Assembly: GCA_964387845.1 (NCBI GenBank)
Contig: CAYLXA010000009.1
Coordinates: forward strand, 32,001-96,000
Origin: an uncultured bacterium
Lineage (GTDB): Bacteria > Omnitrophota > Omnitrophia > Omnitrophales > Abzuiibacteriaceae
DNA length: 64,000 nucleotides
Direction: 5' to 3'
A model generated the notes under the pieces. That model ran no database searches, was not told the origin of the DNA, and saw only the letters and a program-made list of their open reading frames with translations. This document shows, piece after piece, positions 4,212 to 64,000 of this stretch. The translations under genes were made by a program, and so were the position numbers. Within the stretch, counting starts at the first letter, position 1. Every line of letters starts with the position of its first letter.

Positions 4212-4213
4212 AC

Positions 4214-4246
4214 ATAAAAAATAAGCCCTTCCCTCAAGGGCTTATC
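4214..4246 (-). terminator. GC-rich hairpin aagccct-tccctc-aagggctt followed by a U-tract on the minus-strand RNA. It could be an intrinsic terminator after gpsA or a leader structure before the next gene.
   Basis: Perfect 8-bp inverted repeat at 4224..4244, flanked by an A-run at 4216..4222 on the plus strand (U-run on the minus-strand RNA). Confidence 0.5.
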
Positions 4247-4255
4247 GATGTGAAA

Positions 4256-4284
4256 GTATACCTTATTATTAGGTGTAATTCAAG
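4256..4284 (-). promoter_or_regulatory. Candidate sigma70-type promoter, TTGAAT-17 nt-TATACT read on the minus strand, for the downstream giant gene.
   Basis: The plus strand reads agtata at 4256..4261 and attcaa at 4279..4284, with a 17-nt spacer between them. Confidence 0.35.
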
Positions 4285-5840: not shown

Positions 5841-5845
5841 GCCTT

Positions 5846-6967: not shown

Positions 6968-6977
6968 ATTTTCCAGT

Positions 6978-7057
6978 CATAAGTGGTAAGTGATAAGTTG
7001 TAAGTAGGAAAAATAACTTACCGTTTCTCACTTAGCACTTACAACTTACCACTTAAA
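6978..7057. repeat. Heptamer-based palindromic intergenic element of the GTAAGTG family.
   Basis: cataagtggtaagtgataagttgtaagtagg / aacttaccgtttctcacttagcacttacaacttaccacttaaaac. Confidence 0.75.
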
Positions 7058-7063
7058 ACTAAA

Positions 7064-7645: not shown

Positions 7646-7650
7646 AGTGT

Positions 7651-7712
7651 TAAGCGGTAAGTTGTAAGTGGTAAGAAAAAACTTATCCCTTACCACCTAT
7701 CACTTAGCACTT
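7651..7712. repeat. Heptamer-based palindromic intergenic element of the GTAAGTG family.
   Basis: taagcggtaagttgtaagtggtaag / cttatcccttaccacctatcacttagcactt. Confidence 0.75.
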
Positions 7713-7714
7713 CT

Positions 7715-18741: not shown

Positions 18742-18747
18742 GTTTTT

Positions 18748-18810
18748 AGTGATAAGTGATAAGTGGTAAGTGGTAAGCAACTTAAAACTTACCACTTACA
18801 ACTTACGACT
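18748..18810. repeat. Heptamer-based palindromic intergenic element of the GTAAGTG family, between the 5718-aa and 3270-aa genes.
   Basis: tagtgataagtgataagtggtaagtggtaag / acttaccacttacaacttacgact. Confidence 0.75.
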
Positions 18811-36244: not shown

Positions 36245-39200
36245 CTACGCTGCCCGAGTCATGCTATTGTACAACTGCTTAGTCCTACTCATCTTATCTG
36301 CAAGCGCAACAGTGCTAAATTTCACCTTCAAATCTTCTAATGCCTGCTGTGTCAAAATGACAATCCGAATCTGCTTAAGAAACGGGCTTACATCCTCCCG
36401 CACAACTTCGATTTCCCGGGACGAACCTTCCAAAGTTAGGTAGCCGACATCAAAGATTTTTCTTAATGTAAAGCGGCGGGCGGCATCCTTTGCGGAGCCG
36501 ACGATCATGATTTTTCCGGAAGCCGGCAGCAGTTGGTTTAAACGATAAAGTAAATCTTTATCCTTCTCATCCCGAGTAATAACCGAAAAAGTCACCTGGT
36601 CACCAAACGCTTTTAAAAATGGGACCGCAAACGCCGAAAGCCCTTCATCAAAGAAGAGGCTGGGCGGAATAATAATACCTTGTGCGGCAGTGCTCTTTGG
36701 CGCCGAGCTCACCGCAGAGTCATTTCCCGTAAAGACTTTCCAAGACGCGGAAACTGCCTCTTCGTTTTTGGTCAACTCATCCGGCGAAACTTGATCGGCA
36801 ATGGTTACAAATTCATCCGAATCATTTTCCAAAGCTTCCGGGCGAGTCTCTAAACTCTCAAAGAAATCTGAGCGAAGCTCCGATCTTTCTGCCGGTTTGG
36901 ACGGCTTTGGCTTAAAAGCTTCAACCTCCTGATTGTTTTGGATAATCAAATCACGGCCCGCATCCGGATTGAGGCCTGCCACAAATTCGTTAAAGAGCAT
37001 CTGGCTTGTTTGATGCGTCAAATCGCTTGATTCACGGCGGATGATCCGGTCGCGGCGAACTTTGTCATCGGTTTCAACTAAAACTTGAATATCCGGAACG
37101 ACGGACAACTCGGGCTTCGCCCTTGATAGAAGTAAATCCCCGAAAACACCAGCTACTAACACGATCTTCTTTCCGGATAATGCCTGCTTTAAATCCTTCT
37201 TAAAACGATTCACGTAAACATAATCGATCCATGTTTTATCCGCATCAGGCACAAACAGAAATCCGTCTTCATCCACGATACGCTGATCTTCCGGCACGGT
37301 CGGAGGAAGATAGTCATCACTTTCGATATACTGAATATCCTCTGGAAGAACGCCGGCAGTCCCTTGCTTTGTGATGATTTGTGAAAAAGTACTTTGGCCG
37401 CTGCCTGACAGGCCCGCAATCCGGACCACAACCGGATCTCCTGGTTTTTCCGAAAGTTTGGCCCGTATGAGACCTTGTAGTTGAATAAGCCCTTTTTGAA
37501 GGCCGCTTGTGAGCAACTGTTCGGTAAGGGTATCTTCAAACTTCCTAAGTTCCGAACGCTTAGCCCGAGATGGCTCGATGGTTGATTCGAAAATTTCCCC
37601 ATTTTCTCTATAGTAGCCAAGATTTCGAAAGCGCCAGTAACGCTGGTTGCGGATTTCGTCCGGGGATAATTTGGACAGAGCTTCTAAATTAACGCGGATT
37701 CTTTCAACCATCTTTTGAACCGCGGCATTGTGGTCTAGGTGAGCGCCGCCTGCCGGCTCTTCAACAATTTCATCCACGATTTTAAGCTCTTTCAAACGTT
37801 CCGGTGTCAACGCCAATGAATCGGCAAGTAAAGCCACGTGTTCTGGATCATAATCCCGGAAAATAATTTTGGAAGCCGATTCGGGAGCAATCACGGAATA
37901 ATAGGCGTTCTCTTGAATCAAGACCCGGTTGCCGAGCGCAAGCGCCATCGCGCCGCCTGAGCCGCCTTCGCCCGTAATCACAATAATCACGGGCACCGTC
38001 AGATTGGCAAATGTAAGCAGGTTGAGCGCCACTTCTTTGGCAATTCCGTTATTTTCACCTTCCGGCCCCGAAAAACCGCCCGGTAAATCTAAAAAGGTAA
38101 TCACGGGGAGGCCGTTTGCTTCCGCGTGCTTCAGCAGCTGGCGTGAAAATTGGTAACCGCCATGGAGCGGCATTGCAGAATGCAGCCGTCCCTGTTCCCA
38201 CTGGTAAAGGTACGAACCTGTCTCGTTCTCCGGGTATTTTTTCCTTTCGACTTTACCAGCTTGGCCTTTTTGTGTACCGATCACTACCACTTCTTTTCCA
38301 TGATCCATGCGAACCACGCCGCCCACCACTGCCGGGTCTTTTTGATTGGGCCATACCGTAAACCGGCCTAACGCATTCATATATTCCATGACACGCGGCC
38401 TAAATTGGTCTTTTCCATTAATACGGGCTAACTTGACTACTTCAATCGCTGCGCGGCCGTTTTGTTTGGGTGTAAAATCATTGGGAATTTTTGGCAATGC
38501 TACTGCCGGAACGGCTCGATACTTTCCGCGCAATTCTTGATCGCGGCCCGTTTGATAAAACCTTTCGATCAGGACAGATAAACGGGCTTTTTGGTCTTTC
38601 CGATGCAGAATTCCGTCAATTAAAAGCCCCTCGAACCAAATTTTTGAGTTCTGAAAATCGGCTCCCAGTAAATGAGCGGTTTTTTCGGTAATTCTTAAAA
38701 ATTCCCGGGTCACCCGCTCGCCGGCAAATCCGATCCGGGCTTCGGGTTCTGCAAACAGCAAATCGCCCTGGTTAGAGAAACTGACGGCAGGGCCGGCAAG
38801 CGTGGGATCTGCCATCAATGAAATATAAAGGCCGCCTTCCCGTTTGTATTTGGCAATCGCAACGCTGACTTTGCCCAGCTGCATCATTGAAGTATTGCCT
38901 TCTAAAATGCGTGCGCCGCCTGACTGCGACACAATCACGAGCGGCAGACCTTCTTCATTGGCGCGTTCAACTAATCTCGCGATTTTCTCGCCCATGACGG
39001 AACCAAAAGTTCCGGCAATAAAATAATATTCTAAAACGGCAATCGCTACTTTGCGGCCATTGATATAGCCAACGCCGGTCACGATGGCGTCCTTTTCTTT
39101 CATGCGCTCCTGATTTTCGGCGATGTCTTCCGCATAAGTTTTCTTGCCTTTAAAATTCAGAAAATCCACGGGTTCGAGGCCAGCATTCATTTCTTCAAAC

Positions 39201-42200
39201 GGCTGATCTTTGTCTAAAAGCATGGCGAGCCTTTTTCGGGCCGGCAAATAATGATGCTTGTGGCAAAGCGGGCAAACGCCGTGGTTGGCGTGAAGCGCTT
39301 CCTCGTAAATCGAATCAGGATCATCAAAGGCATCTCTGCTTTTTGGAAACTTTGGATCATGTTTGGATTTCAAAATAGCGGATTCGAGTTTTGCTAAATA
39401 ATTGGTATCAAATTCACCGTTGATAAAACTCGGCATGACAGCCAGCTGCTTATATAGAAGGAGGGTTGTTTTGATGGGCGTTCCGTTTAACTGACCCTTG
39501 ATCTCAAATTGATCCAGCGCTTCCTTTAACCGCTCAATAGCTTCGGTTCGGGTTTTTGCCCGGATGGTGAGCGTGGCAAGGCTCGAACTTCTGCTGATAT
39601 GAATCTTATCTCCCTCCTTGATATGAAGTTGGATGTCCACGCCATTCCCGGCAGGAGGCAAGGCTATCTTTTCAATAACCGCTTCCGGATATTTTGAAAA
39701 ATCATGGGCGAAATCCTCGGCAAAAACCGACAGTTTGATCGTGTGATCCTGTGATTTGATATCCGGCTGCAATTTTATATCCGGAAGAGATTGTCCGCCC
39801 GCAATTGCGATCTGAAGCTGAATCAAATCAACGGGTTTTCCATCCTGATTGACAAATTCTCGGTTATCGATATTTCGGTTGATATCCAGAAAATAAATTT
39901 CGCCGGATTGGGTCATCAGAAATTCCATTGTGCCAACGGTCTGATACATCAAGCCGTCTTTGCGCAAACCGGCCAGGATTGTCCGGACAGCGGACCTGAT
40001 TTCCTCATCTTTATCCTGCGACATCAAGGCAGGCGGGGTTTCCTCGATTAATTTTTGATAACGGCGCTGAATAGTACCGTCCTGAAACGGCCAAATCGAG
40101 ACATTGCCGAACTGGTCGGCTGCAAACTGAACTTCAATGTGCCGCACCTCCGGAACCAGCTTTTCTATGAAAAGGCCGTCATGCCTGAAATGATAAACAG
40201 CGTTGCGTGCCAATTCGTTAAATATGCGCCGCATTTCATCTTGGTTTTGTACAAGGCCCAAAAGCCGGTCAACACCGCCAACCGCGGATTTCACCAAAAC
40301 CGGATACCCCAGCTCGCCTGCCGCCCGGATTGCCTCCAAAGGCCCATCGACGGTAAATTCCGAGGACGGCGGCACTTTGATTCCATATCGCTGAATACGC
40401 TCTTTAATGGTTTCCGGATTCTTGCCTTCGGACTTAAGAGGATGAATCCGTACCGCGCTGACGGTTTGATGATCGGGGCCGATAACTCTGATATTTGCTT
40501 CTTTTGCGGCACTGATCAATTCCGGTGTTTCCGACAAAACACCAAATCCCGGATGAATGACATCCGCCTTGGCCTGCTTGGCGGCATCTAAAATTCCGCG
40601 GATATTGAATGCCTTGTTCTGGATCCTGGTAATTTGTATTTTTTCATCCGCCAGGCTTAAAACTTTCTTCTGTGCGTCCAAATCGGTATACAAAATAACG
40701 GTTTTAATGCCCATGGCTTTTGCTGCTTTAATCACGCGTTCTGCTAAGCGATCCACGAATGCGATGACCATTGTCCGAATTTCTAAAGATTTAACGCTTT
40801 TTGCGGCTCTTAACTCGCTCCGGGATCCTGTTTTTCCGGGTTTTGCTTTCAAAAACAGCCAATCCATTAAGAAATGATCTTTTTCATGTCCCTTGAGCAC
40901 GCCTTTAAAAGCGCGTGTAATGATTTCTTTTCGGATTGTTTGAATTTCAGCTTCTGATCCGATCACTTCCGGCAAAATCGCCTCCGCCAAGGGAGCTGCT
41001 GTGAAAAACTGGATAAGATCTTGGCGGGTTGTTTGAACGGGGTCAAATTTTAGGGTTTCGACCGAAAGTCCGGCTGATTCTAAAGCCTTCGTATAAAATT
41101 CAAGCGGGCGGTGAGCGGGAAAAACCTTTTGAAATTGGCCCGCATGGCCGTTCGTGGTCAAGTTCCGGTGATTGCTGTATTGGCCATCTGAACTCAGAAT
41201 CTCAAGCGCCCTCGCGCGGACCTGGATCAATAGGTTTTCAAAACCTTCTACGCCAATTTCGCGGTCATTTCTTAAAATGCCGGGTGTTGATAACACAAGT
41301 TTACCATCCGGATGAAGTGTTTTGGCAATTCCCTCAAAGACATGCGCAATCTGGTTGACAGCAACCGTATGAATCAGATTAGGCGCATACACGAGATCTA
41401 TCAAACCTCTGGAAGCAGGGCCGAGTGCCTCGAAAATATTTTGATGCCCATTTCCCTCGGTTAATTTCTCAAGGAGATAGACGCGTAAATTGGGATATAA
41501 GTCCTTCGGAAGAAGTTTGATTAGGTGACGCAAAAATGATTTTGATATATCCGCTGCAATCACTTGCGCATTGATACCGGCAAGTTTCAATAGACGCGCG
41601 GTCCCATTCCCGGTTCCTGCGCCGAGATGAACAATTTTTTGAATCCCGGGCATGCCCTCTTGGCGTTTAAGGCCCGCGATCCTTTCTGTTTTATCCAGCG
41701 ACAATTGATACATGTCGGTTTCGGTCGATCGGAAAAATTCCCTCGCTGCTTGTGATGGTTCCTTTCCATCTCCTTGCCACGGCGGATTGAATAAATTGCG
41801 CAGTTCAGATTTAACGCTCTGAATCAAGCCCTGCCGGCCGTCTTTTGAATCAGCTAGTATTTGAATATATTCCAGTGCTTGATGCAGTTCTCCGGTGTGA
41901 TGACTAGGATCGAAAATCTGATCAACGCCCAAATATTTTAGATAAGGGCCTTCATCTTCAGTGATGCCGCCTACAATTACTTTGATCCGATCTTTGGCGC
42001 CGTATTGATCCAATTCATTCATTAAATCGCGTACAAAATGAAGCCGCGCACCCGAAAGGCTTGAAATTCCAATGATGTCGGCGTTTTCATCAACTGCGGC
42101 ACGTGCAATCATGGCAGGTGTTTGACGAAGCCCCGCATAAATGACTTCGAGCCCGGCATTTTTAAACGCGGCGGAAACCAAATTGATGCCGCGGTCATGG

Positions 42201-45200
42201 CCGTCTAAGCCCGGTTTTGCCATTAAAATGCGGACGGGCACTTTGCTTTCGATTTTCCGGATCGGCGCTTGCCGGCTCGTTTTAGACGGAAATACGCTCT
42301 TTTTAAAATCACCAAATACGCCGCGCACGGCATCCATCATTTCACCGACGGTTGCTTCCGCGAGCGCGGCTTTAATAAAGTAAGGCATCACATTTTCATT
42401 CTCTTCAGCTGCTTTTGTAATCTCGGCCAAGGCTTTCCGTACTTTTTCATTGTCGCGTGTTTGTTTCAGTTTTTCTAAATTACCCAAAACTTCGGCGCGG
42501 CGTTCCTCGTAAGATCCCATCCGCTCACGCAGCATTTCTTCGGTAATGTCAACTTTTTCCGCTTTTTCTTCCCTTACCCCTTGCCCCTTGCCCTTTAATC
42601 CTTGTTTGGTGAGTCTTTCTTCCCGCAGCATTCCTTTTTTGGTCACTTCATCCTGAATGGCGTCGCGCATGTACTGCTCGACCGCTTCCTGGCCTTCGGT
42701 TTCATTTAATTGAATCAAAAATTGAATCAGCGCCGCGGCTTGATTGATAATTTCATCCGTGTATTTTTCAAGCAAATAACTGCCGCCGTTCGGATCCACT
42801 TGCTTGTCTGCGATTTGCTTTAAAATTTCATGGCTTCTCAGCGCGACTTTTGCGGCATGTTCGGATGGCAGGCGCCTGTTCTCATCGTAACTATCCAAAT
42901 GAAGCGTTTGCGTGCCGCCGTCAACCGCAACCAGGCCTTCCGCCAAAATGCGGGCGATATTGGCCGGCTCATCCACCCCTTCCGGATCTCCTTTTAAAGG
43001 AACGCCTGAAGTCTGTGTGTGTACCCGGAACATCAGCGCTTTATTTTTATTTTCATCGCGTGCTTTCAAAATATGGCGGGCAATAATAGCCCACAGTTCG
43101 CGCGCAGCGCGGAACTTGGCGGTTTCGTAGGTTTTGGTTTCGCCGGTTTCGTCCATCAAAAGCGAATCAAAGAAAAATGAAAATTGCTCGAGCACCTGAT
43201 TCACGGTCACTTGGCTTCCCGGGCGCTGATTTTTGAAGAAATTCTGCGCATACAAAATCGCGTTCATCAGCGTAAACGCAACTTCCTGAACGGCCGATGA
43301 GCCGGCTTCGCGCATGTGATAACCGCTGATTGAAATCGTGTTGAACCTCGAACCTGCGAAATACTCGAACATATCGTTTGCGAGACGCATGGAGCCCTTC
43401 GCTGAAATACCGTAATTGTTGCGCGTGGTTCTTTCTTTGTTGTTGTCGTTTTGGACAGTGCCGCGGAGTGTTTTCTTGGCGAGTTCGATTGCTTCGGCTT
43501 CTGACAAACTGCTGTCTTTCTGCATGAGCCGTTTCGTGCCGAGTGCGATATACATCGCCAAAATCGGCCCTGCGGATGCGTTGATCGTCATCGAAGTGGA
43601 AACTTCGCCGTCTGTGATGTCGATTCCGTCAAAAATGGTTTCCATGTCGCGGATCGAATCGACCGGTGCGCCCTCGGTTCCGATGTTGTAAATCGCGCGC
43701 GGGTCATCGGAATCAATGCCGACTTGCGTCGCGTTCTGAAACGCCAGACTGAATGCTTTGAATCCTCTTTCTAAAAACAGGCGGAATCTTTCGTTGGTTT
43801 CACGTGCCGTGCTGTAACCCGCATACTGCCGCGGCGTGACAGATTTGTAAGTCGCAAATGCGCCCCGGCGGAACGGATATTGGCCCGGCACCTGAACGGC
43901 CGGTACATCGCCGAAATCAAAAATGCGCGGCACCGGCTGCGCTTCGTTGGGGTCTAAAAGCCCGATGCTGTAGATCGATTCGCCGCGCTCACGGAGGAAC
44001 TTGGACATTTCATGATCGGGATCCTCGGGTTCAATGAATTCAATAACACCTAGGTTTTCCGGCAGTTCCAAGACCGCTATTTTTAGTTTTGCATCTTTAT
44101 CTTCATATATAGGAAGGCCGAATGACGCCGCGCTGGAAACAGGAATCATGATGCTGACGCGTTCTTTGGCAATACTTTTTAACCTGTCGTCCTGAAGCCA
44201 GCTCTCCCTGGCTTTCTGAATCATGGGCTCCGCAATTTTTGAAATTTCTCCGGCAATCACCTTTTGATGGTGTGTCTCCCGGAGGATTTGCACCAAATAC
44301 GGAACCGATTGCTGAACGGTGATAAGCTCTTTCTCGGCAAGTTTTCTTTTAGTGGTCGGTTTTGTTTTTTGATTCAAATGAGCCAAATGCGCCGATATCC
44401 GGAGTAAAAGTTCTGAAAATCCTTTTTGTTTTTCGCCGGTTGAAACGGTTTGAACCGCAAGCGGCTGCCATCCGTCTTCACGCGCAGGCTGTGTTGAAAG
44501 ACCGGCTTCGAGGTCGTGAATGGCGACAAACGCGCGTTCCGTGTCCGCCTGGTTTAATACCGCAATATCGGGCGTTTCCATGGAACCTGCTTTCATGGTC
44601 TGAATTTCACCCAGATAAGCGGGACTTAAAGTCAAAAGAAGCGTGTCGGAAACTTTCCTGATTTCATCCTGAGTTTGGCCGGCGCCTTCGGTTTCGATCA
44701 AAACAACATCCACGCCCATGTGGTCCATTAATTTGGCAACTTCATCCGTCGTTTTGGCAATGCCGCCTTGGCCGTCGCGCAAACTGACGCTTCGGATCAT
44801 GACGCCCGTGTCATCCGCCAAATTACCCATGCGGTACCGGTCTACGAGAAATGCCCCGCCCGAAGAGTCTGATGACGGGTCTACGCTGACGATTCCAACC
44901 CGAAGACCCGTTCGCCTGATTTCGCCGGCAAGGTTTGCGATAAATGAACTTTTACCGACTCCGGGCGGCCCCGTGATTCCGATCCGGTAAGAATTGCGCG
45001 GCAGTTTTTGAATTTCAGAAACAACAACCGGCCGGATTTCTTCACCGGTACTTTCCATAAAAGTCATGAGCCGCGCAGCGGCGCGATGATCGCCTTGCTT
45101 GACCAAATTTAACAACTGACGGGTTTCCCACCAGATCAGCGGCATTGTGATACCGGATTTTCCGGAAGCGGCAATAACCCTTCTTTTAGCCGAAAACTTT

Positions 45201-48200
45201 TCGAGATAATCCGCTAAATTTTTCTCATCCAAAATCCTGCCGGCAGGTTTATTTTCAAAAACCTGATAAATTACATCACCGTCAGATTGGCCGCCATAAA
45301 CAACAACTGCGCGGTCTTTCAAACTCGAAACTTCATGCGCAAGGAGGCCCTTCAGCTGCATGTCTTCTTCTGATTGGGGATCCAAATACACGATATCCGC
45401 ATCTTCATCAATCGCGGCGCGCGCGATATGACGCGCTGCTTCCGGATTTTCCGATGTTTCCCGGACATAAATCACTTCGAAACCCTTTGAGCGGAAAAAC
45501 TCCGCGGCAGCTAATGAACGATTTTTATCTCCAAGTTCCACGACCAGCGCGCGCCCTTTCGCCAATTTAAATTCCGAAGCAGGGCCCGCTGCCGGCTTGG
45601 AATGTACTTTTAAAAATTCTCCGTGCCGGCTGACGGCATCAATGAGTTCCGAAATTCCTTTGCCTTCGCCCTCAATCGCGACCGTTTCAATCACAGGCGG
45701 CATCCATTCGTCTTTCGCTTGAGGTTTTTGGAAAACGCGCTTTGCAATTTCCGCCGTTTCGCGGGCACCTTTTCGGTCGGCTTTATTGACAACCAGCACA
45801 TCCGCAACGGTCAAGTAGCTGTCCTTGCTGAGCGTTAAAATATCGCCTGACTCGGGCGGAATCGCAGCCACCATGGTATCCGTAATTTTCCGGATTTCTT
45901 TTTGGGATTGGCCGACACCTTCGGTTTCGATGAAAACAAAATCCTTTGGAGTTCCGGAATCAACTCCGTAAATATCAAACACTTTTGCGACTTGTTCGGT
46001 TGTTTTTGCAATGCCGCCAACGCCGCCGCGCGTCGCCATGCTCCTGTAAAATACATTTTCATCCGTCAGCAGTTCGCGGGAAAGCCGCATTCTGTCCGCC
46101 AAAATTGCGCCGCCCGTAACGGGGCTTGTGGGATCAATCGCGATCGCCGCAATGCGTTTTCCCTGCCGCCTGTATTGTACGATCATGTCTTCGACCAGCG
46201 TGCTTTTGCCCACACCGACCGCGCCTGTGACGCCGATTCGGCGCGGTTTTTGCTCGATATGAATGGCGTCCAATTTTTGATGAATCAATTCCGCAACTTC
46301 ACCGCCGTTTTCAATGAATGAAATCAACTCACCGGCTGCATGGTCATCGCCCGCGCGGACTTTTGAAATGAGCGTATCCACTTCGGCGTTTCGAAGTTCG
46401 GAACGCGAAGTCAAGGTTTGTGCCGCCAACCGGGCAAGCTTTTGGCTGTCCTCGCGGCGGCCACGTGACCCGACCCAAACCGCGATTCCGACCGGAATCA
46501 TAACAAAAAACATTGAAGTTCCAAGCGCATAAAACAGGCCGATTACTTTTTTCTGGAACAAAAAGTCTTCGTATGCATCCCCTAAGATTAGCTGCTGAAG
46601 ATTTTCACCGTTTGCAAATAGAAATTCGGGCCTTTCGCTCAACACGGTATCGCGAAGGCGCATGACGTCCATGCTCGCATCATTGCGGACGATTAAATAA
46701 GCGAAGTCGCGCCCGTCTGTTCCTGCTTGGATATCAATGCGGATAATTTTGTCGTTGATGTCCGGTAAAGATTTAATGCTCGAAAAGGAAAGGGCTTCTT
46801 TTATCCTGTCCTGCAAATACGCATTGTTGCCGAATTTTCCGCCCAATTGATCGTTGATCACAATCGGCAAGTCGGTACCTTTCGCTTCTTTAAGCGCACG
46901 CTCGGCGGCGCGGACCGGATCCATATACCAAAAATAGGCCGCACTTGAGATCGGAAGCACAACAACCATCGCGATGAGGAACGACAGCAGTTTGTGCTTC
47001 GAAATCCAGCGCGGATATTGGCGGTACCAAACTCTCTGCTTTTTATCGATTCTATGAACCTTGCGCAGATAATCGAGAACCTTCGCCTCAAATAAAGAAT
47101 ATTTCTTCGGTAAATTTAGGTCAGTTGGCTGAGTTTGATCAGTCACCTTGCTTGTAACGTAACCGCTTGGTTTCAGAAAACCTTTTTCCCTAAGGTGGTT
47201 ATAAATTTTCTCGGATTCCGTTTCGTTAAGCCAGGTTAAAGTGGGGCCATCGGACAAATAGGTAATTGCCGATCGGCTGGCGGCATCATCGTTATCCGGC
47301 GTTAGGTTGGCAAAATCACCGGCATGAACTCTTGCCCGCAGCTCTGAGCGCGAAGAATCTGCTTCTTTGTTCCTCGGTTTTGGTTTTAAAGAACTGACGA
47401 TACTTAGAGTTTCCAGTTCCTTCATGACATTGACGGTAAAAATAACGGAAACAGCGACTGTGATCATGGCGCCCGCAGTTAAAAGAGTAGGCACAGCAAT
47501 CCACCAAGGCAATATTTGACCATCTAAAAGCGGATTCTTGGACTTGTCTCCCGTTCTCAACTCCGACCTGGCTTCCCTTTGAAGGAAAGTCGTTAAGCTC
47601 ATCATAGCGGGCAGGCCCGATTCAGGCTTCGGAAATGGTTTAGCATCCCTCGTACGCACACCGGAAAGAGCCGCAATTAAGCGATACTCGGTATAAGGCA
47701 TGATGGTTTGTGAAATCCAATGGGTGCCCCAATAAGCGGAGGCCGGCACTTGAGCGGCTTTGTTAACTGCCGTCACCGGATCATCTGAAGACAAGAAAAC
47801 ATCAGGGTCGGCGGTATGAAGTTCAAGCAAAATTAAGCCGTGATTAATATATTTTTCCCAGCGCTGGAAAAATTTGATAAGGTCGGCCGCCGCTACAACC
47901 GCGGGCACTAATTTTCCTTTATCAGAATAGGAAGTCCTGAATCGTGTAGCGATTAACTCGCTCAAGTCATCAAGATTTTCAGGCAAGGGCTGTATGTTAA
48001 GAATGCTCTGAAGAAGCGCTCTGTCTGTTTTCAAGACAGCTTCTTTAAGAATCTCTCTTGCTTCGTCTATACTTTTAATTTTCAGCTTTCTTTCGTGAGG
48101 CAAAACCATCTGCATATGCAGAAGATCCCGGGCGCCGACCGGGCGGTTCATCCGCAATTCGCGGTCATAAATAACCATACGCCTGTCCGCCATGCTCTTC

Positions 48201-49771
48201 TTAATTGCTTCGTCATACTCTTCCGGGTTTGTAACATCGCCGAACAACACATCCGTGACGATACCTTCGGTATTTTCAAATGCTTTTAACGTGTTTGCTT
48301 CTCTTAGGCGGGATTTTTCGTTGTAGTCAGCAGCAATTACAACCAACGGATGTTCCTTGAGATGTTTGCCGCGCAAAGTGTTCTGAATAATGTGATCGAC
48401 TGTTAATTTTAAAAGATGCCCGTCGCCTGCGCCCATATCCGCAATTCCGGCAGGCTGGGCTTCAATAGGCGCGTTAAAAATCCGGTCAACCCGCGCAATA
48501 ATATCTTGGATATAAGCTTTATGCGCAAAGCTGCTGCCCCAGATATCCATCACGCGGTCAATGTGGCCGTCCCGGTCAATACCAAGCGGATCCGGATTTC
48601 CAAAAAGCATTTGGTCTAAAACTTTGTAGGATTTTAAATAGGATGTCGTAACGCCATAGCTGCCCACTTTCTTCATAAACGACAGCCCTTTGGGTGTGAG
48701 GCGGACTAGATGACGCTGATGCGGCTGCCGCTCGGCCAGACTATGTATTGCCAACAGGTCGAATGCTGCGTCTATAAAACCGCGCTGAAAGCTTTCGGAA
48801 ATGAGCCCAATATCAAAACTATTGTTTTGAGCTTCTAATTGATTAAAGATTGATTCTCCGACTTGGACAATTTCGCCGTCAACATCGCGATAAACAGGCA
48901 TACCGAGCGCCACCATCGTTGCGCTCATGATGATACCGTCGATTTGAGTCCGTACTTCCTCAATTACCCTGCCCACTACCCTTGAATCATGGTGCCTGAA
49001 TATAGGACTGGATGAGCTTGGCAAACTCCATCCACGCGCACTTTGTTCAACCAATGCCTTATACTGCTTAAGTTCCACGTAGCGCCCGTCTTGGCTTGGT
49101 TGATGAAAATATTCATGAAGCCTTACAACGTCCGCGATTCCTTTAACCGGTGTTTCTAAATAGCCGGCATTTGCAAGCAATGCCGCAATCTGCCCTTTTT
49201 CCGTTAGTGAAAAAACGGTCTGCTGGTCAATGCCCCACATCCTAACCCACCCCTGCAGGGCAAGCGTCCGCATCGCTCCGTAAATGTTGCCTGCATTAAA
49301 TTTTTCTCCATACGATGCAAACCTTGACTCTAAACTGGCTAAACTTAAGGATTCAGGCTGTGTCCAAGACCCGAATTGATAGAAAACACCCGCTTTAGAT
49401 AAATAATGAAGTATGGGAATTGTCATAAGGCCGTTAATGTGCTGGAAGATCAGCGACCGAACTTCGCTTTCGGATACAGGGCCGATATTGGATCTTAATT
49501 CCGACCTGGGATTAAAAAGCGTTTTGACAAACTGGACGGTGATATCCGCGAGCGAATGCTGCTCTAAGATTTTTTCTTCCGGAAGATCAAGTTCTTTTCT
49601 GAGTTCGGAACGGAATGCGGGCACCATATCCGCCGATTCCGGACGCAGCGTAGAATTATATTTCAGCGCCGAGGTCAGGTAAGGAATGTCGGAATAAGCG
49701 ATAGAACTTGTAAATGAAAACGAAACTACAAGCAGTGCAGAAATTAACTTAAGAAAATAATTTTGTTTCAT
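36245..49771 (-). CDS. Giant polyprotein-like gene of about 4508 aa. Modules in order: leader, O-methyltransferase-like module, transmembrane segments, two MeaB/ArgK-type GTPases, methylmalonyl-CoA mutase catalytic and B12-binding domains, a SAM methyltransferase, biotin carboxylase, carboxyltransferase beta then alpha, a P-loop kinase, and the conserved C-terminal domain. Eight exact RSELR motifs plus the KSELR variant. The start is moved to the ATG at 49769..49771.
   Basis: Stop-free frame of 13.5 kb. Leader: [30 protein letters not shown]. The track's GTG start at 49786 would overlap the upstream stop and translates a repeat remnant. Confidence 0.8.
   Translation of the reverse strand: [4508 protein letters not shown]
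36880..37560 (-). other. P-loop kinase module, uridine-kinase/PRK-like.
   Basis: [17 protein letters not shown]. Flanked by RSELR on both sides. Confidence 0.45.
37620..39330 (-). other. Acyl-CoA carboxylase carboxyltransferase beta module, then the alpha module.
   Basis: Beta: [16 protein letters not shown] zinc finger and GGARILEG. Alpha: [25 protein letters not shown] and [13 protein letters not shown]. Confidence 0.7.
39500..40790 (-). other. Biotin carboxylase (ATP-grasp) module.
   Basis: [32 protein letters not shown]. Starts directly after [13 protein letters not shown]. Confidence 0.7.
40830..41830 (-). other. SAM-dependent methyltransferase module.
   Basis: [15 protein letters not shown] motif I. 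Preceded by the KSELR variant. Confidence 0.5.
41850..43950 (-). other. Methylmalonyl-CoA mutase catalytic barrel followed by its B12-binding domain.
   Basis: [18 protein letters not shown] and [14 protein letters not shown]. B12 domain: [32 protein letters not shown]. Confidence 0.7.
44100..45150 (-). other. MeaB/ArgK-type GTPase module 2.
   Basis: [16 protein letters not shown] and [21 protein letters not shown]. Confidence 0.65.
45500..46400 (-). other. MeaB/ArgK-type GTPase module 1 (methylmalonyl-CoA mutase chaperone family).
   Basis: [16 protein letters not shown] P-loop and [20 protein letters not shown]. Confidence 0.65.
47950..49450 (-). other. Class I SAM-dependent O-methyltransferase-like module.
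   Basis: [11 protein letters not shown] SAM-binding motif with an upstream dimerisation-like region. Coordinates are approximate. Confidence 0.5.
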
Positions 49772-49772
49772 C

Positions 49773-51347
49773 TTATCCCTTACCACTGCTTTCGTCAGAT
49801 TCCCCTTTAATGTACCAGCGGCCGTTTTCCCATTTTTCCGTGAGCATGCGGCGGTAAAGTTCGGGGCCTTGGCTGAGGCCGACAGTCGGCGCGATTACGA
49901 CAACGTTAAAGCCAATCCGGTTCAGTTTTCGGATAAGGCGTTCTTTATGGAAACCGCCCGCGATTAAAACGGATTCGGGTTCCCGGTCAGCTTTGATTTT
50001 CTCCGTGAGATTTTCCACGAGCGCCTGGTCGCGCATGTTGGCGATGCGGTAAAAAGATTGAAATTCATCGAGTGTTTCATCCAGTTTCGCCAAATTAGAC
50101 GGTAACGAAATATTTTTTCCCTGCCCGCCGGCCTGCGCATTGAGAAAATTTTTCCATCCTGCGATTTTGAAGCGGTCGCGCTCGTCCATGAAAACCTGAT
50201 ACTGCTCAGGGACGAGCTCCAATTTGACAAGCGATTCCAGAATCACGAGATCGTTTGACATCCGGTAAACCCGCTTCCCTTCCGGTGTTTCCAAAAATGC
50301 GTCTGCAATACGGTCTGTGAGCTTTGCTTTTTCATCGAAAAACGCGAGCGAATCAATCTGATCCTGCTTCCTCAAATACGGAATAGCGCCTTTGACGGAC
50401 GGATACTTATTGGTATCGATCGAATTTTTTTCGGCAAGTTCGATTAATTTTTCGTAAAAATCGGCGCGCTTATTGGCGTCTTTCTCAACGCCGTGTTCCG
50501 TATCCAAAACCGCGCGCAGTTCTTTGGCATCGACGCGGCGCTGCATCTCACGGACCAATTGTGTGCGCTCGTAATCGACTTTTTCGAAATCGGCGGTAGA
50601 TTCCAATTTAATCAAACTGGAAAGCACTTCGACGTTCGGATAATCCGAAATCGAGATATTTTTCTTAGCGGCGAACTGAAAAAGAAGTTTGGCTTCCTGG
50701 TGCAGGTTGTGTTTGGCTGTAAAATCCTCAAGCTGGGTTTCAAATTCTAAAAATTCCTTCGGATAGAGACCGGGCTTGACGGCATTCACCGCAATCCTGA
50801 CCTGTTTGAGCTGGTCTAGCATGTTCTGCATGAGCGGCTCAACTTTGGTAAATGCAATCAGGTTTTCGTCATACAAAACCTGGCTTTCGATTCCCCACAA
50901 GAGCAACGGATAGTCTTCCGTGAAGTTTAAATATTCTTCTCCCGAAATTTTGCCTTCGCGCATCAGTTTGGTGCCGATTTCAACGCGTTTCTCCTTAGGG
51001 CCCACGCGGTATTCCGACAAACTCACATCGCCGATTCCGCCTTCGACCAAAACAAGCCGGATGTCGCGCGCTTTGTGGAGCGACTCGATGATTTTTGCCA
51101 TCGCTTTTTGAGCTTCAAAATTAACGTGTGCGTCTAGGATATAAAAGATATTGAAAGGCTTTGAGCCCGGATGGTATTCCGAAATGCGGCCGGTTTCTTC
51201 GGGAATCTTAATCTGCGCGATATCGGCAGGAAGCGACACTTTGGAGCTTGCTGAGTAAAGTTCAGGGGCGCCTAAAAAACTCAGGGAAGCTATCAGAGCT
51301 AGGCAAATTGCGGTTGTGCGAAAACGTGGAGTGAAAACCATATGCAA
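49773..51347 (-). CDS. TraB/GumN/Tiki-like putative hydrolase or protease with an N-terminal signal peptide. It is paralogous to the N-terminal domain of the truncated giant gene at 1..4211.
   Basis: ILDAHVNFEAQKAM...LVLVEGG and VLIAGGFHKERLIRKL correspond to IQDAHSELGAQENIQ...LYLEGG and VLVTGGFHEEGLKEL in the other gene. It has no RSELR motif. Confidence 0.6.
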   Translation of the reverse strand: MHMVFTPRFRTTAICLALIASLSFLGAPELYSASSKVSLPADIAQIKIPEETGRISEYHPGSKPFNIFYILDAHVNFEAQKAMAKIIESLHKARDIRLVLVEGGIGDVSLSEYRVGPKEKRVEIGTKLMREGKISGEEYLNFTEDYPLLLWGIESQVLYDENLIAFTKVEPLMQNMLDQLKQVRIAVNAVKPGLYPKEFLEFETQLEDFTAKHNLHQEAKLLFQFAAKKNISISDYPNVEVLSSLIKLESTADFEKVDYERTQLVREMQRRVDAKELRAVLDTEHGVEKDANKRADFYEKLIELAEKNSIDTNKYPSVKGAIPYLRKQDQIDSLAFFDEKAKLTDRIADAFLETPEGKRVYRMSNDLVILESLVKLELVPEQYQVFMDERDRFKIAGWKNFLNAQAGGQGKNISLPSNLAKLDETLDEFQSFYRIANMRDQALVENLTEKIKADREPESVLIAGGFHKERLIRKLNRIGFNVVVIAPTVGLSQGPELYRRMLTEKWENGRWYIKGESDESSGKG

Positions 51348-63952: not shown

Positions 63953-64000
63953 CAAACTTAATTGGGGCAGCGAATCCCAAACCCAAACGGGAGCGTAAAC

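Follow-up and report, generated by a model that had tools for sequence, protein, structure and literature searches.

ORF D, a leader-bearing gene of 4,508 codons in the 64,000 nucleotides of Omnitrophota DNA analysed here (the window), may well encode a polyprotein precursor, and the pentapeptide RSELR that punctuates it would then be a proteolytic processing site, a reading to which we give a probability of roughly 0.55. That RSELR acts as a functional boundary signal at the protein level is very probable. If the motif is cleaved, one giant precursor gives rise to many separate proteins.

Organisation of ORF D and its neighbours

ORF D runs on the minus strand, which was missing from the original prediction, from an ATG at 49771 to a stop codon at 36245-36247. 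Starting five codons further upstream, from an in-frame GTG at 49786, would give a protein of 4,513 residues; the frame is uninterrupted over 36245..49786. Gene calls on an independent public assembly (Logan SRR15237813) include the exact 4,508-residue product, which is also present in NCBI on a 106-kb contig, so that the single long ORF is confirmed as open throughout and known from two sources. Metagenome assembly is the source of the sequence and giant ORFs are often under suspicion; however, besides the identity of these two products, two independent assemblies of a relative (L002 and L003) show the same architecture, 13.5 kb free of all three stop codons at 47-50% GC are not obtained by chance, and the motif is in frame at every ORF D junction. 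Furthermore, table 11 counts all three stops, and therefore an error in the genetic code could only shorten ORF D, never lengthen it. A mis-assembly, frameshift, chimeric gene joining or mis-called code has thus a negligible probability, and ORF D and its modules are real.

The motif, which was overlooked as the key feature in the original prediction, splits ORF D into 10 segments, all on the minus strand:

49613..49771 (-): segment 1, residues 1-53, signal-peptide-like leader by hydropathy, MKQNYFLK-LISALLVVSFSFTSSIAY-SD
49598..49612 (-): RSELR separator 1, residues 54-58
49508..49597 (-): segment 2, residues 59-88, 30-residue spacer peptide with no domain detected
49493..49507 (-): RSELR separator 2, residues 89-93
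47570..49492 (-): segment 3, residues 94-734, AprA_N and AprA-MT2-like methyltransferase (Methyltransf_36, MT36) module
47555..47569 (-): RSELR separator 3, residues 735-739
47351..47554 (-): segment 4, residues 740-807, 68-residue unit with one TM-like helix
47336..47350 (-): RSELR separator 4, residues 808-812
46406..47335 (-): segment 5, residues 813-1122, 310-residue unit with two TM-like helices
46391..46405 (-): RSELR separator 5, residues 1123-1127
41813..46390 (-): segment 6, residues 1128-2653 (1,526 residues), MeaB/mutase/B12 unit, separator-free inside
41798..41812 (-): KSELR separator 6, residues 2654-2658
40823..41797 (-): segment 7, residues 2659-2983, class I SAM-dependent methyltransferase
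40808..40822 (-): RSELR separator 7, residues 2984-2988
37559..40807 (-): segment 8, residues 2989-4071 (1,083 residues), biotin carboxylase (BC)-like ATP-grasp, AccD-like and AccA-like domains, separator-free inside
37544..37558 (-): RSELR separator 8, residues 4072-4076
36887..37543 (-): segment 9, residues 4077-4295, P-loop NTPase/kinase-like module
36872..36886 (-): RSELR separator 9, residues 4296-4300
36248..36871 (-): segment 10, residues 4301-4508, C-terminal module ending in MTRAA
36245..49771 (-): ORF D as a whole, leader-bearing polyprotein gene of 4,508 residues

Pfam, NCBIfam and PDB searches reproduced the domain order given in the original prediction, with full-length recognisable homologues of MeaB, the mutase, biotin carboxylase, both carboxyltransferase halves and two methyltransferases in one frame. 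A signal-like leader ahead of such modules, with RSELR at the junctions, is indeed unusual. The statement that the enzymes are separated by RSELR holds at the boundaries of the 10 segments, but two multi-enzyme units lack an internal motif: segment 6, which consists of MeaB #1, a degenerate B12-like domain, MeaB #2, a VOC/epimerase-like stretch, the methylmalonyl-CoA mutase (MCM) barrel and a B12-binding domain, and segment 8 (BC-CTbeta-CTalpha) are each one unseparated unit. No family match was found for segments 5 and 10.

In the window, ORF D is accompanied by ORF C and by five further adjacent ORFs with the same leader and motif, which the original prediction had overlooked:

59462..64000 (-): ORF A, open at the window edge, sister polyprotein with five RSELR and a divergent PGM/PMM-like module
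51386..59173 (-): ORF B, 2,595 residues, sister polyprotein with the same leader and a Glu/Leu/Phe/Val-dehydrogenase-like module
49773..51347 (-): ORF C, 524 residues, candidate processing hydrolase with its own N-terminal hydrophobic helix
18817..35973 (-): ORF E, 5,718 residues, sister polyprotein with the same leader and eight RSELR
8929..18795 (-): ORF F, sister polyprotein with the same leader and 15 RSELR
2..4279 (-): ORF G, cut by the window edge, sister polyprotein with leader, ORF C-like module and two RSELR

BLAST between leaders showed that the ORF D leader is homologous to those of ORFs B, E and F. ORF B has 16 [RK]SELR, or 18 with two RAELR-type variants, and ends in RSELRTLRSA. 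ORF E, in which no TM segment was found apart from the leader, contains 3HCDH modules, a second mutase-like barrel, an acyl-CoA synthetase, an HpcH-type lyase, MaoC and an acyl-CoA dehydrogenase, and its C-terminus is RSELRNVIELGRAA. ORF F has 3,288 residues from a GTG at 18795 or 3,270 from the likely ATG at 18741; it ends in RSELRTSMAA and carries ACP-like, PEPCK(GTP) and TIM modules, with the catalytic residues of PEPCK and TIM intact. ORF G contains an in-frame fusion of an ORF C paralogue, with RSELR at its boundaries and a second RSELR further on. The housekeeping neighbours in the window are hrcA-grpE-dnaJ and gpsA.

In a comparison with L002, a close relative whose ORF C is 86% identical, segments bounded by the motif in ORF D could be aligned over their whole length, from the first residue on, with motif-bounded counterparts in the relative. 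Segments 3 and 8 match the L002 segments 466-1104 and 1105-2247 end to end, segment 6 starts in register with an L002 segment, and segment 10 is 26% identical to the L002 C-terminal segment, its MTRAA end fitting the C-terminal signature of giant proteins. The segment 3 module is also common to the giant proteins P0002-P0005 and P0093. In L002, the MT36, BC and CT modules are in one gene and MeaB and MCM in another, in an order that differs from ORF D. The motif-bounded segments thus behave as cassettes, and the module order reflects cassette shuffling and not pathway logic.

The RSELR motif and its possible roles

The six adjacent leader-bearing giant ORFs contain 55 copies of [RK]SELR (53 in five ORFs and two in a sixth), or 57 if RAELR-type variants ([SA] at position 2) are included, against 0.07 expected by composition in the pooled polyproteins and a maximum of one in 200 shuffles. 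No copy was found in the other reading frames (four counted) or on the other strand, nor in the ordinary genes hrcA, grpE, dnaJ and gpsA or in ORF C. Its codons include all six for Ser, all six for Leu and all six for Arg, and the flanking residues are unconserved. Within ORF D, none of the nine motifs falls inside a domain envelope, although envelopes cover 61% of the protein (P=2e-4); some of the gaps between motif and domain edge are of 10-16 residues and others are wider, BC begins 4-6 residues past a motif, and AccA stops about 15 residues ahead of the next one. A motif is found within 54-159 residues after every leader, two copies lie within 40 residues directly after the leader of ORF D, and in three of the five complete ORFs a motif lies 5-9 residues ahead of the stop codon. 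The motif is thus enriched, at set positions and under selection at the peptide level. There is no sign of internal starts: only seven of the 57 copies have a Met within 12 residues downstream, and internal promoter- or terminator-like sites in ORF D were not above shuffle expectation.

ORF D could also be an uncleaved, membrane-tethered mega-enzyme or scaffold of 500 kDa, with RSELR as a short linear motif at the hinges between modules, where it would bind a partner (a chaperone, assembly factor or scaffold) or set the linker structure. The motif flanks are hydrophilic and linker-like, with few hydrophobic or aromatic residues (z=-4.5) and an excess of Ser, Gln, Pro and Ala. MeaB-MCM and BC-CT, the two largest units, already form stable separator-free fusions, and multi-enzyme Omnitrophota giants have been described as single polypeptides with signal peptide or TM anchors. 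However, a hinge motif would have no reason to sit just ahead of the stop codon in three ORFs or to occur twice right after a leader, and the cassettes move between genes as motif-bounded units. A recognition or cleavage role accounts for motifs at the very C-terminal end, which a flexible-linker role cannot do. In addition, other clades show the same geometry with different motifs (xDGGx, ARFTE/RFAE/ARFG, RTSP, (D)ASGAAP, RRSP[AS]G, RTAT and [AS]SLG), which are clade-specific, and five invariant residues with unconserved flanks, together with unrelated motifs elsewhere, fit enzyme-recognition sites better than structural linkers. We consider the uncleaved mega-enzyme rather unlikely. Against the processed polyprotein, ORF C homologues are also found in clades without a detected exact separator: with strict thresholds, and at the low power that few copies per protein allow, none was detected in 87 of 92 single giants or in about 38 of 48 genome loci.

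Instead of a protease site, the motif might be a repeated signal for export, sorting or modification, for instance a secretion-machinery site, a pause or stop-transfer cue in the translocation of a very long chain, or a modification site, possibly one acted on by the AprA-like methyltransferase, the first cargo module. Every motif-bearing ORF has a signal-like leader and a conserved C-terminal signature, the MT36 module is again the first cargo in unrelated giants, and the Arg, Ser and Glu of the motif are modifiable. Against this, no translocation system is known to rely on internal pentapeptide repeats, the motif is wholly different between clades (DGG, RTSP, SGAAP) with no common chemistry, and most sister polyproteins in the window lack the MT36 module, all of which makes such a signal improbable.

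The processed polyprotein remains our preferred reading. ORF D would be the precursor encoded by one of at least six adjacent genes, each with a signal-like leader, a string of independent cassettes and a tail ending in small or aliphatic residues, in that order. A dedicated site-specific endopeptidase would recognise [R/K]-S-E-L-R, the best candidate being the ORF C family of hydrolases with a TIKI/erythromycin-esterase fold, and cleavage sites would be clade-specific. The enzyme would cut the 4,508-residue precursor into about eight mature products: the AprA-like methyltransferase, two small membrane proteins, an IcmF-like MeaB2-mutase-B12 fusion, the SAM methyltransferase, the BC-like/carboxyltransferase fusion, the P-loop protein and the C-terminal module; processing would also strip off the leader and the short spacers. 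We infer the cleavage, the position of the cut within the motif, the protease role of ORF C and the cellular compartment. Two points count against processing: a literature search found no proteomic, N-terminomic or biochemical evidence of cleavage, and a leader that predicts export stands in front of cassettes that are mostly cytoplasmic-type enzymes dependent on ATP, GTP, CoA, NAD or B12.

Enzyme modules of ORF D

The original prediction read ORF D as a complete propionyl-CoA carboxylase, mutase and MeaB route in pathway order, with all catalytic motifs intact. The mutase agrees with this: the MM_CoA_mutase domain matches at 2e-108, its Tyr/Arg/His substrate and catalytic residues are intact and MCM-type, and the C-terminal B12-binding domain carries DxHxxG. 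In other modules the motifs are substituted. The BC module has VGGVDR in place of the Gly-lid GGGGRG and has lost R292 (to N), E296 (to R) and R338 (to S; E. coli numbering), residues required for biotin carboxylation, and the same losses, Gly-lid included, are seen in its L002 paralogue; the Walker A of the segment 9 kinase-like module is GLSGSGQST, with Gln for Lys; MeaB #2 shows NQAD instead of NKxD; and the AccD-like zinc finger keeps one CxxC only of the four-Cys ribbon. With BC and P-loop cassettes lacking canonical catalytic residues, "mature enzymes" may not suit all products.

Nor is the carboxylase complete, as no BCCP/biotinyl domain or MKM motif was found anywhere in the window. 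The carboxyltransferase, with the signature motifs GGARI and GEGGSGGA, fits the accD/accA models and reaches 79 bits against a cutoff of 999 in the PccB/MmdA-type model. The carboxylase part is of ACC type and not of PCC type. A metabolon from propionyl-CoA to succinyl-CoA (PCC, epimerase, MCM/MeaB), fused for substrate channelling, would be consistent with an intact MCM, two MeaB modules and a carboxyltransferase in one frame, and with the further acyl-CoA enzymes in neighbouring ORF E. Nevertheless, besides the missing carrier, the substituted BC residues and the AccD/AccA-type carboxyltransferase, the epimerase-like signal in segment 6 is sub-threshold (14 bits), the mutase precedes the carboxylase, opposite to the route, the order is not kept in the close relative, and unrelated cassettes (two methyltransferases, membrane proteins and the P-loop module) are interleaved. 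The metabolon is largely refuted by these membership tests and we regard it as very improbable.

Segment 6 matches positions 42-1075 of the NCBIfam IcmF model and shares with IcmF the order of B12-like domain, G-protein and mutase barrel, while a canonical MCM barrel and a B12 domain are present as well. It differs from IcmF by an extra N-terminal MeaB, an extra C-terminal true B12 domain, a degenerate internal B12-like domain and substrate residues of MCM type (Tyr/Arg versus Phe/Gln), and it scores far under equivalog cutoffs (416 versus 1500 and 422 versus 876). Segment 8 shares with fused (PDB 9kkm, AccADCB) and multi-subunit ACC the presence of BC, CT-beta and CT-alpha on one chain and the AccD/AccA-type signature motifs. 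It differs in the absence of BCCP, the lost BC residues and Gly-lid, the half-kept zinc ribbon and the C-D-A domain order.

ORF C and comparison with known systems

The ORF C stop is 1 nt from the ORF D ATG and a Shine-Dalgarno-like sequence is present in the ORF C 3' end, from which ORF C is predicted to be translationally coupled to ORF D. Its AF2 model (pLDDT 89) has an erythromycin-esterase/ChaN/TIKI fold core with a helical insert of about 300 residues. Pfam ChaN/Tiki matches are found in seven of 40 family members, with H74, E102 and H467 invariant and D72 at least 90% conserved; D72/H74/E102/H467 correspond to the superfamily 2His/2acid motif. Among the top 150 of 10,096 cluster representatives of the family, about 70% have the ORF C-like module as the first ~530 residues of a protein of 1,000-5,568 residues. 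On these predictions, ORF C-type proteins have this fold and conserved catalytic-type residues and are fused to and coupled with giants. Adjacency to a giant ORF is weak evidence for a protease in a phylum full of giant ORFs, and esterases, as well as non-enzymes like ChaN and PMT, also belong to the TIKI/Ere superfamily. ORF C-type proteins may possibly be the processing enzyme, a tentative assignment, and ORF C could be an esterase or non-catalytic.

With the TIKI superfamily endopeptidases (Tiki1/2 and MARTX RRSP), ORF C shares the arrangement acidic-x-His ... Glu (+28) ... GxxH. The 28-residue His-to-Glu spacing is as in the 2His/2Glu motif of Bcr135 and RRSP (PMC6254334). RRSP and Tiki cleave at single defined bonds. 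ORF C differs from TIKI and erythromycin esterases by the all-helical insertion and the N-terminal hydrophobic helix; it resembles them only marginally in sequence (Pfam sub-threshold), and no PDB match was significant in Foldseek (best EreC, E=0.12).

Multi-enzyme metabolic giants of Omnitrophota have been described by West-Roberts et al. 2023 (bioRxiv 10.1101/2023.11.21.568195) and Nielsen & Lui 2026 (bioRxiv 10.64898/2026.06.07.730766), and there has been speculation about their post-translational cleavage. ORF D shares with them the phylum, many enzyme Pfams tiling one polypeptide and a signal peptide and/or TM helices, and glycolytic/gluconeogenic and PGM-type domains also occur inside giants. 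The catalogues comprise proteins of at least 10,000 or at least 30,000 residues, compared with 4.5 kaa in ORF D. Neither preprint reports separators, a shared leader, a C-terminal signature or an ORF C/TIKI-fold module. The first states that it has no information on cleavage points and nominates C39/S8 peptidase domains (bioRxiv 10.1101/2023.11.21.568195), none of which is found within the window, and the words cleavage, motif, linker and polyprotein are absent from the second (bioRxiv 10.64898/2026.06.07.730766).

ORF D can also be compared with bacterial precursors that yield adhesins, proteases or small peptides, from which it differs in its cytoplasmic-type metabolic enzymes and in a motif and candidate protease that are unrelated to theirs. 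The gingipains RgpA/Kgp, the P97/P102 adhesins of Mycoplasma hyopneumoniae, cleaved at S/T-X-F|X-D/E, and cyanobactin PatE, whose cassettes have recognition sequences on their flanks, are leader-bearing precursors cut at repeated short motifs. Viral polyproteins (picornavirus 3C, potyvirus NIa/TEV, flavivirus NS3) comprise several functional proteins per ORF, with a short conserved recognition peptide at each junction whose sequence varies by lineage, and the protease is usually encoded within or beside the polyprotein. The candidate protease ORF C has a predicted TIKI/Ere fold and not a chymotrypsin-like one, and ORF D, for which we infer cleavage, lies in a cellular bacterial genome with central-metabolism-type cargo; it shares with the viral systems the one-ORF layout and the lineage-specific junction peptides.

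Coding content of the window and domain composition of ORF D

The window carries six consecutive giant ORFs on the minus strand (A, B, D, E, F and G), as well as a small gene, ORF C, beside the target gene ORF D.

Features of the window
59462 to window edge, minus strand: ORF A, at least 1,497 aa, PGM-like
51386-59173, minus strand: ORF B, 2,595 aa, amino-acid dehydrogenase-like
49773-51347, minus strand: ORF C, 524 aa, sole non-giant gene inside the cluster
36245-49786, minus strand: ORF D as an open frame, 4,513 aa from a GTG
36245-49771, minus strand: ORF D from its likely start, the ATG at 49771; 4,508 codons, 4,508 aa
49598-49612 and 49493-49507, minus strand: paired RSELR separators of ORF D
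18817-35973, minus strand: ORF E, 5,718 aa; 3HCDH, second mutase-like barrel, acyl-CoA synthetase, HpcH lyase, MaoC, acyl-CoA dehydrogenase
8929-18795, minus strand: ORF F, 3,288 aa; ACP-like, PEPCK, TIM
4398-8743, minus strand: hrcA-grpE-dnaJ operon and gpsA, ordinary size, between ORFs F and G, no RSELR
2-4279, minus strand: ORF G, leader and ORF C-like module fused in frame; runs off the window edge

The 4,508-codon ORF of the original prediction is real: the frame is uninterrupted and the identical 4,508-aa product was called on the Logan assembly of SRR15237813 and also on the 106-kb NCBI contig. An exact-sequence look-up matched the ATG-start version and found no match for the GTG-start version. 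Since the same product comes from two sources, ORF D is not a one-off assembly artefact. Homologues of ORF C at 61-86% identity, which indicate the origin of the locus, are almost all labelled Omnitrophota or Omnitrophica, and so are more than 500 further ORF C relatives in reference genomes.

Pfam, NCBIfam and PDB sequence searches recovered the predicted domains of ORF D in the same order. The N-terminal part contains AprA_N and Methyltransf_36 (AprA MT2-like; MT36), followed by three hydrophobic helices. The middle part shows MeaB, a degenerate B12-like domain, a further MeaB, MM_CoA_mutase, a B12-binding domain and a class I SAM methyltransferase. The C-terminal part contains Biotin_carb_N/ATP-grasp/Biotin_carb_C, an AccD-like and an AccA-like domain, a P-loop module and a 208-aa unannotated module. 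Pfam tiling gives at least 13 distinct domain families in one polypeptide with no dominant repeat, and hydropathy shows a leader and three TM-like segments. An NRPS/PKS megasynthase, guessed from the ORF sizes, was discarded because condensation, KS and AT domains are absent.

The carboxylase had been described as a complete propionyl-CoA carboxylase with intact catalytic motifs and a zinc finger, as had the other units with regard to their motifs; these statements did not hold for the carboxylase or for some of the other units. The carboxyltransferase (CT) is of the accD/accA type: the NCBIfam mmdA subfamily model, which tests for the PccB/MmdA type, reaches 79.5 bits against a cutoff of 998.8, while the best models are accD (229 bits) and accA (186-201 bits), both below their equivalog cutoffs (229 against 317 and 186 against 319). 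The best PDB matches of the region are the beta and alpha chains of acetyl-CoA carboxylase CT, and both halves are full length (2f9y_B 34-277; 9m70_B 24-273). The oxyanion-hole glycine motifs GGARI and GEGGSGGA are present; however, the supposed zinc finger is a single CxxC (CPLC) out of the four-Cys AccD ribbon. Presence of a biotin carrier, a point raised by the original prediction, was examined in all ORFs of the window: Biotin_lipoyl (Pfam) gave no match, and the biotinyl-Lys motif [AEVSC]MK[MLVA] is absent from ORF D, its sole match in the window being in ORF E in a context that is not lipoyl-like.

A competent E. coli biotin carboxylase (BC) has K238, E276, E288, N290, R292, E296 and R338 together with a Gly-rich lid. 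The BC of ORF D is full length and reaches 268 bits with the accC equivalog (cutoff 626). According to the alignment to PDB 3ouu/1ulz its lid is changed from GGGGRG to VGGVDR, and R292, Q294, E296 and R338 (E. coli numbering) are replaced by N, D, R and S, respectively. The BC paralogue of L002, a locus of a close relative, is degenerate at those very positions. The ORF D BC has lost the residues required for carboxylating biotin; the carboxylase is incomplete and does not qualify as a propionyl-CoA carboxylase. Substitutions are also found in the P-loop "kinase", whose Walker-A Lys is changed to Gln (GSGQST), and in the second MeaB, which shows NQAD where NKxD is expected.

The mutase part is better preserved. 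The methylmalonyl-CoA mutase (MCM) barrel matches MM_CoA_mutase at 2e-108 and aligns with human MUT residues 67-718 (E 1e-89). Equivalents of Tyr89, Arg207 and Tyr243-His244 are kept in RQYAG, TTRNNY (Arg) and SGYH, and the B12 domain shows the DxHxxG motif in GLDGHDRG. Both subfamily models, acid_CoA_mut_N and _C, exceed their cutoffs (384 against 304, and 116 against 57), while the MCM equivalog stays below its own (422 against 876). With BC, CT and MCM all well under NCBIfam equivalog cutoffs, they are divergent family members. Both MeaB/ArgK copies carry GxxGxGKS and ETEGxGQ, and the first is canonical (NKAD); TIGR00750 reaches 403 bits against a cutoff of 241, summed across both copies. 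The architecture is partly like that of IcmF, whose NCBIfam model is covered at positions 42-1075 with 416 bits against a cutoff of 1500. IcmF has Phe/Gln in place of the MCM Tyr/Arg; ORF D differs in keeping the MCM-type residues. A methylmalonyl-CoA epimerase suspected between the second MeaB and MCM was not confirmed, the region giving only a 14-bit Glyoxalase_4 match.

ORF D runs the mutase before the carboxylase, which is not the order of the pathway, and the arrangement is not conserved in L002/L003, two independent assemblies of the relative. The observation behind the original prediction is partly confirmed, its reading as a pathway-ordered route from propionyl-CoA to succinyl-CoA is largely wrong, and the underlying object is more interesting than proposed.

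The sister ORFs show further particularities. The second MM_CoA_mutase match, in ORF E, scores higher (610 bits) and lacks RQYAG, the GYH pair and the B12-binding domain; the module set of this ORF is reminiscent of ethylmalonyl-CoA or 3-hydroxypropionate-type chemistry. In ORF F, PEPCK(GTP) and TIM are fused inside one motif-bounded unit, with all three catalytic signatures of TIM intact (NWK, GHSER, YEPVWAIGTG). The ACP-like module is a short unit of its own (48 bits, under cutoff), and the last 300 aa consist of six very short motif-bounded peptides of 38-83 aa. ORF B has 19 segments, most of them with no family match and six with TM-like helices; segments 196-401 and 647-736 share 58% identity, and the string LPSHLAKSELR is present at both aa 647 and aa 920, which suggests that a cassette may have been recently duplicated along with its separator. 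Plus-strand ORFs of 178-259 aa antisense to the giants (26497-27276, 40055-40591 and 16321-16932) have most likely stayed open by chance, as can happen in long coding regions.

The RSELR motif and motif-bounded cassettes

Counting [RK]SELR gives 53 copies across ORFs A, B, D, E and F, nine of them in ORF D, plus two in G; the pooled count with [SA] at position 2 is 57. For the pooled polyproteins, the expectation from composition is 0.07 and the maximum in shuffles (n=200) was 1. No copy of [RK]SELR was found in the other four reading frames searched. The synonymous codons of Ser, Leu and Arg, six each, are all in use within the motif, so that selection acts at peptide level rather than on the DNA or RNA. 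A repeat or recoding signal in the nucleic acid itself was rejected, as the codons vary freely with no nucleotide conservation, and so were translation restarts at the junctions, as Met lies within 12 residues of only seven of the 57 motifs.

The flanks are unconserved except for small residues at -1 and Ala at +1. Compared with random positions, the 15 residues on each side contain fewer hydrophobic and aromatic residues (z=-4.5) and more Ser, Gln, Pro and Ala. None of the nine ORF D motifs falls inside a domain envelope, although envelopes cover 61% of the protein (P=2e-4), and several lie 10-16 residues away from a domain edge. BC residue 3 aligns six residues past a motif, and the last AccA residue is about 15 residues ahead of the next one. 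Separation of the modules by RSELR, as predicted, stands in that the motif splits ORF D into ten segments; not every enzyme is set apart, since MeaB-MeaB-MCM-B12 (1,526 aa) and BC-CTbeta-CTalpha (1,083 aa), both natural units of several domains, have no internal motif. As in a viral polyprotein, a conserved sequence is found at junctions between functional units; the locus has 55-57 such copies, nine of which belong to ORF D, and all are inter-domain.

The leaders of ORFs B, D, E and F are homologous: each has a positively charged n-region, a hydrophobic core of about 18 residues and the pattern F-[ST]-F-[TS]-x-x-x-[AG]-Y-[ST]-[DE]. From every leader, the distance to the next motif is 54-159 residues. 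Paired separators about 25-35 residues apart stand just after the leader in ORF D (54, 89) and ORF B (57, 81), and ORF F shows ASELR at 74 and RSELR at 87; the spacer within the pairs of B, D and F is short (about 10-30 aa). The complete ORFs of the window terminate in ...[RM][AS]A or ...RA. The window ORF ends, at 8929, 18817, 36245, 51386 and 59462, read TLRSA in ORF B, MTRAA in ORF D, TSMAA in ORF F, and LGRAA and VLSRA in the others. A C-terminal module of about 200 aa universal to the window polyproteins found no support in BLAST, where the matches are limited to ORF B with ORF E and ORF D with the C-terminal segment of L002; the shared C-terminus is limited to the last five or so residues.

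The leader and TM-like segments of ORF D could also belong to an uncleaved, membrane-tethered mega-enzyme in which RSELR is a docking or hinge motif. In three ORFs, however, a motif stands 5-9 residues ahead of the stop codon (RSELRTSMAA, RSELRTLRSA and RSELRNVIELGRAA, each directly followed by the stop), a placement for which linker function cannot account. A sorting or modification signal is the other alternative to cleavage. RSELR is very probably a functional boundary signal at the protein level, and we lean slightly towards a proteolytic site.

For the study of the segments as cassettes, all polyproteins were cut at the motif and the pieces compared by BLAST. In L002/L003, where ORF C is 86% identical, similar modules are found in another arrangement: one gene (2,454 aa) has a leader, an unknown segment, MT36, BC/CT and a C-terminal module, and the next gene has a leader, MeaB-MeaB-MCM-B12 and then more. 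Between ORF D and L002, the MT36 segments align over 1-641 of 646 and 1-638 of 639 residues, the BC/CT segments over 1-1080 of 1088 and 1-1102 of 1143, and the MeaB-MCM segments in register starting at residue 1. Identity of these three motif-bounded pieces is just 43-54%, so they are probably paralogues or fast-evolving copies. Their end-to-end alignment makes the motif-bounded segment the unit that is conserved and shuffled, which argues against a pathway-ordered fusion.

The two ORF C proteins of the window and L002 share 86% identity, but their homologous polyprotein cassettes only 26-54%, and the giants with PGM modules gave no BLAST match at 1e-10 between the two loci. This means either that evolution is much faster in the cassettes than in ORF C or that paralogues were compared. 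L002/L003 also show a 118-aa gene of the bAvd/23S_rRNA_IVP family (11613-11969), placed after the ORF C homologue and before the polyprotein gene; proteins of this family serve as the accessory protein of diversity-generating retroelements.

ORF C and punctuation in related giants

The stop codon of ORF C is 1 nt from the ORF D ATG and a GGGA Shine-Dalgarno-like sequence lies within its 3' end, which indicates translational coupling of the two genes. ORF C has no Pfam match above threshold, and the ChaN/Tiki Pfam model is weakly reached by seven of 40 family members. An alignment of 40 sequences shows H74, E102, R121, E154, R439 and G464-G465-x-H467 to be invariant and D72 near-invariant (at least 90% conserved). 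The AlphaFold2 model obtained from this alignment (pLDDT 89) has a predicted alpha/beta core with a parallel sheet, as expected of the TIKI/erythromycin-esterase/ChaN fold. Foldseek of the model against PDB found no significant match, probably because of a helical insertion of about 300 residues. According to the structural study of RRSP, active TIKI-superfamily enzymes have a 2His/2Glu catalytic motif (E3900, H3902, E3930 and H4030), with H85/E113 as the Bcr135 counterparts (PMC6254334). D72, H74, E102 and H467 of ORF C reproduce this motif by spacing and motif correspondence, and its His-to-Glu spacing of 28 is that of Bcr135 H85/E113 and RRSP H3902/E3930 (PMC6254334).

A paralogue of ORF C opens ORF G, fused in frame; this module is 24% identical to ORF C over about 480 aa and ends at RSELR, and the second RSELR of ORF G stands about 400 aa further on. 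A profile search of 1.84 billion representatives found 10,096 family members, 6,905 of them at E<=1e-30, and among the best 150, about 70% have the module as the first ~530 residues of a 1,000-5,568-aa protein. Fold, conserved residues, coupling and fusion were read directly from the model and the sequences; that ORF C-type proteins are the processing enzyme, as a predicted protease, is a tentative proposal and rather doubtful at present.

Giants that start with an ORF C-like module have ends resembling those of the window ORFs. A hydrophobic leader is found in 87 of 92 such giants of at least 1,500 aa. Those of at least 1,000 aa (P0113-P0255) show the C-terminal signature [AV]-L-[RWK..]-[SA]-[LVAI]-COOH, with S/A at -2 in 85 of 105 and L/V/A/I at -1 in 91 of 105, and the window ORF ends fit it. 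Stand-alone ORF C-like proteins of less than 700 aa lack the signature and have charged residues at the end. The signature may be a C-terminal recognition signal.

Punctuation of the same geometry, with unconserved flanks, was found in other clades: xDGGx (10-16 copies per locus in L006, L031, L039 and L046), RTSP (nine copies against 0.03 expected), ARFTE/RFAE/ARFG[DE], (T)DASGAAP/[AS]GAAP, RRSP[AS]G, RTAT, and [AS]SLG in the proteins P0002, P0003 and P0093. Strict motif scans, exact or gapped, picked up separators at about 10 of the 48 genome loci and in 5 of the 92 single giants, and do not support punctuation of all relatives; the low rate may reflect few copies per protein or real absence. 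YPGR (L019) and DALATA (L041) were rejected as separators, being ordinary tandem repeats with conserved flanks (flank identity 0.41). Two smaller proteins also carry the module. P0092 (901 aa) contains an ORF C-like module, the variant RSEMR, a TM helix and an RNase_T exonuclease domain. P0093 (874 aa, partial) contains an ORF C-like module, ...SAQSLGAAK... and an AprA-like MT module as in P0002/P0003; it comes from an Omnitrophica MAG, which places the [AS]SLG clade in Omnitrophota too, although the related P0004/P0005 are labelled "Chlamydiae bacterium".

Proposed processing model and comparison with known giants

A polyprotein is, in our view, the most economical reading of ORF D. One long leader-bearing precursor would be split into its cassettes, some of them multi-domain enzymes, by cuts at a recognition peptide specific to the clade, and the candidate protease would be of the TIKI/Ere-fold family, encoded beside or inside the precursor. 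Motif, placement, peptide-level selection and cassette behaviour are observations; that the motif is cleaved, at which bond and by which enzyme are our inferences. In its general form, to which we give a probability of roughly 0.4, Omnitrophota would make a large share of their proteins, central-metabolism enzymes included, as leader-bearing polyproteins cut at clade-specific peptides (RSELR here; xDGGx, RTSP, SGAAP, ARFxE and SLG elsewhere) by an unrecognised family of TIKI/erythromycin-esterase-fold endopeptidases, with about 10,000 sequence clusters, that is usually the first cassette of a giant.

The leaders resemble classical signal peptides. In ORF E the leader is the only hydrophobic segment, and in ORF F the PEPCK-TIM unit follows it directly, so that enzymes dependent on ATP, GTP, CoA, NAD and B12 would be exported. 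An even number of TM helices keeping the cassettes cytoplasmic works for ORF D and fails for ORFs E and F. The same export puzzle was raised in both preprints on Omnitrophota giants (West-Roberts et al. 2023; Nielsen & Lui 2026), and our results sharpen the question of why cofactor-dependent, cytoplasmic-type enzymes stand behind export-type leaders.

If the general reading is true, bacterial cells would have their own equivalent of viral polyproteins, in which proteases and their sites co-evolve rapidly, and it would supply the missing cleavage map for Omnitrophota giant genes. Cleavage at the motif would allow giant ORFs to be parsed in silico into mature products, changing the metabolic reconstruction of the whole phylum; it would show bacteria using a virus-like polyprotein strategy for housekeeping enzymes and reveal a new, very large endopeptidase family with diverse specificities of 4-5 residues, possible tools.

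Both preprints catalogue Omnitrophota giants and ask whether they are single polypeptides or cut up, and in one of them missing cleavage points block the analysis. West-Roberts et al. 2023 (bioRxiv 10.1101/2023.11.21.568195) described giant proteins with glycolytic-type domains, speculated on cleavage by C39/S8 domains and stated that cleavage-point information was absent. C39 and S8 peptidase domains are absent from all window ORFs. Nielsen & Lui 2026 (bioRxiv 10.64898/2026.06.07.730766) defined a "multi-enzyme metabolic cluster" class and reported a signal peptide or TM helices in 94% of giants; the words cleavage, motif, linker, fusion, polyprotein and processing do not occur in their text. 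A literature search on Omnitrophota with polyprotein, cleavage or proteolysis found nothing relevant beyond these two preprints and no published proteolytic release.

ORF D is like the class 1 giants of Nielsen & Lui 2026 in Omnitrophota origin, Pfam tiling, and leader plus TM-like segments, but differs in size: their catalogue threshold is at least 10,000 aa, whereas ORF D has 4,508 aa and its neighbours 1,497-5,718 aa. These shared multi-enzyme features place ORF D, at a smaller size, among proteins of a kind already described. No earlier description appears to exist of the exact punctuation, the common leader and tail, the cassette behaviour of the segments or the TIKI-fold module at the front, and through them cleavage can be tested directly: for one clade, the window offers a boundary pentapeptide, a conserved leader, a conserved tail and a candidate enzyme with a protease-type active-site signature.
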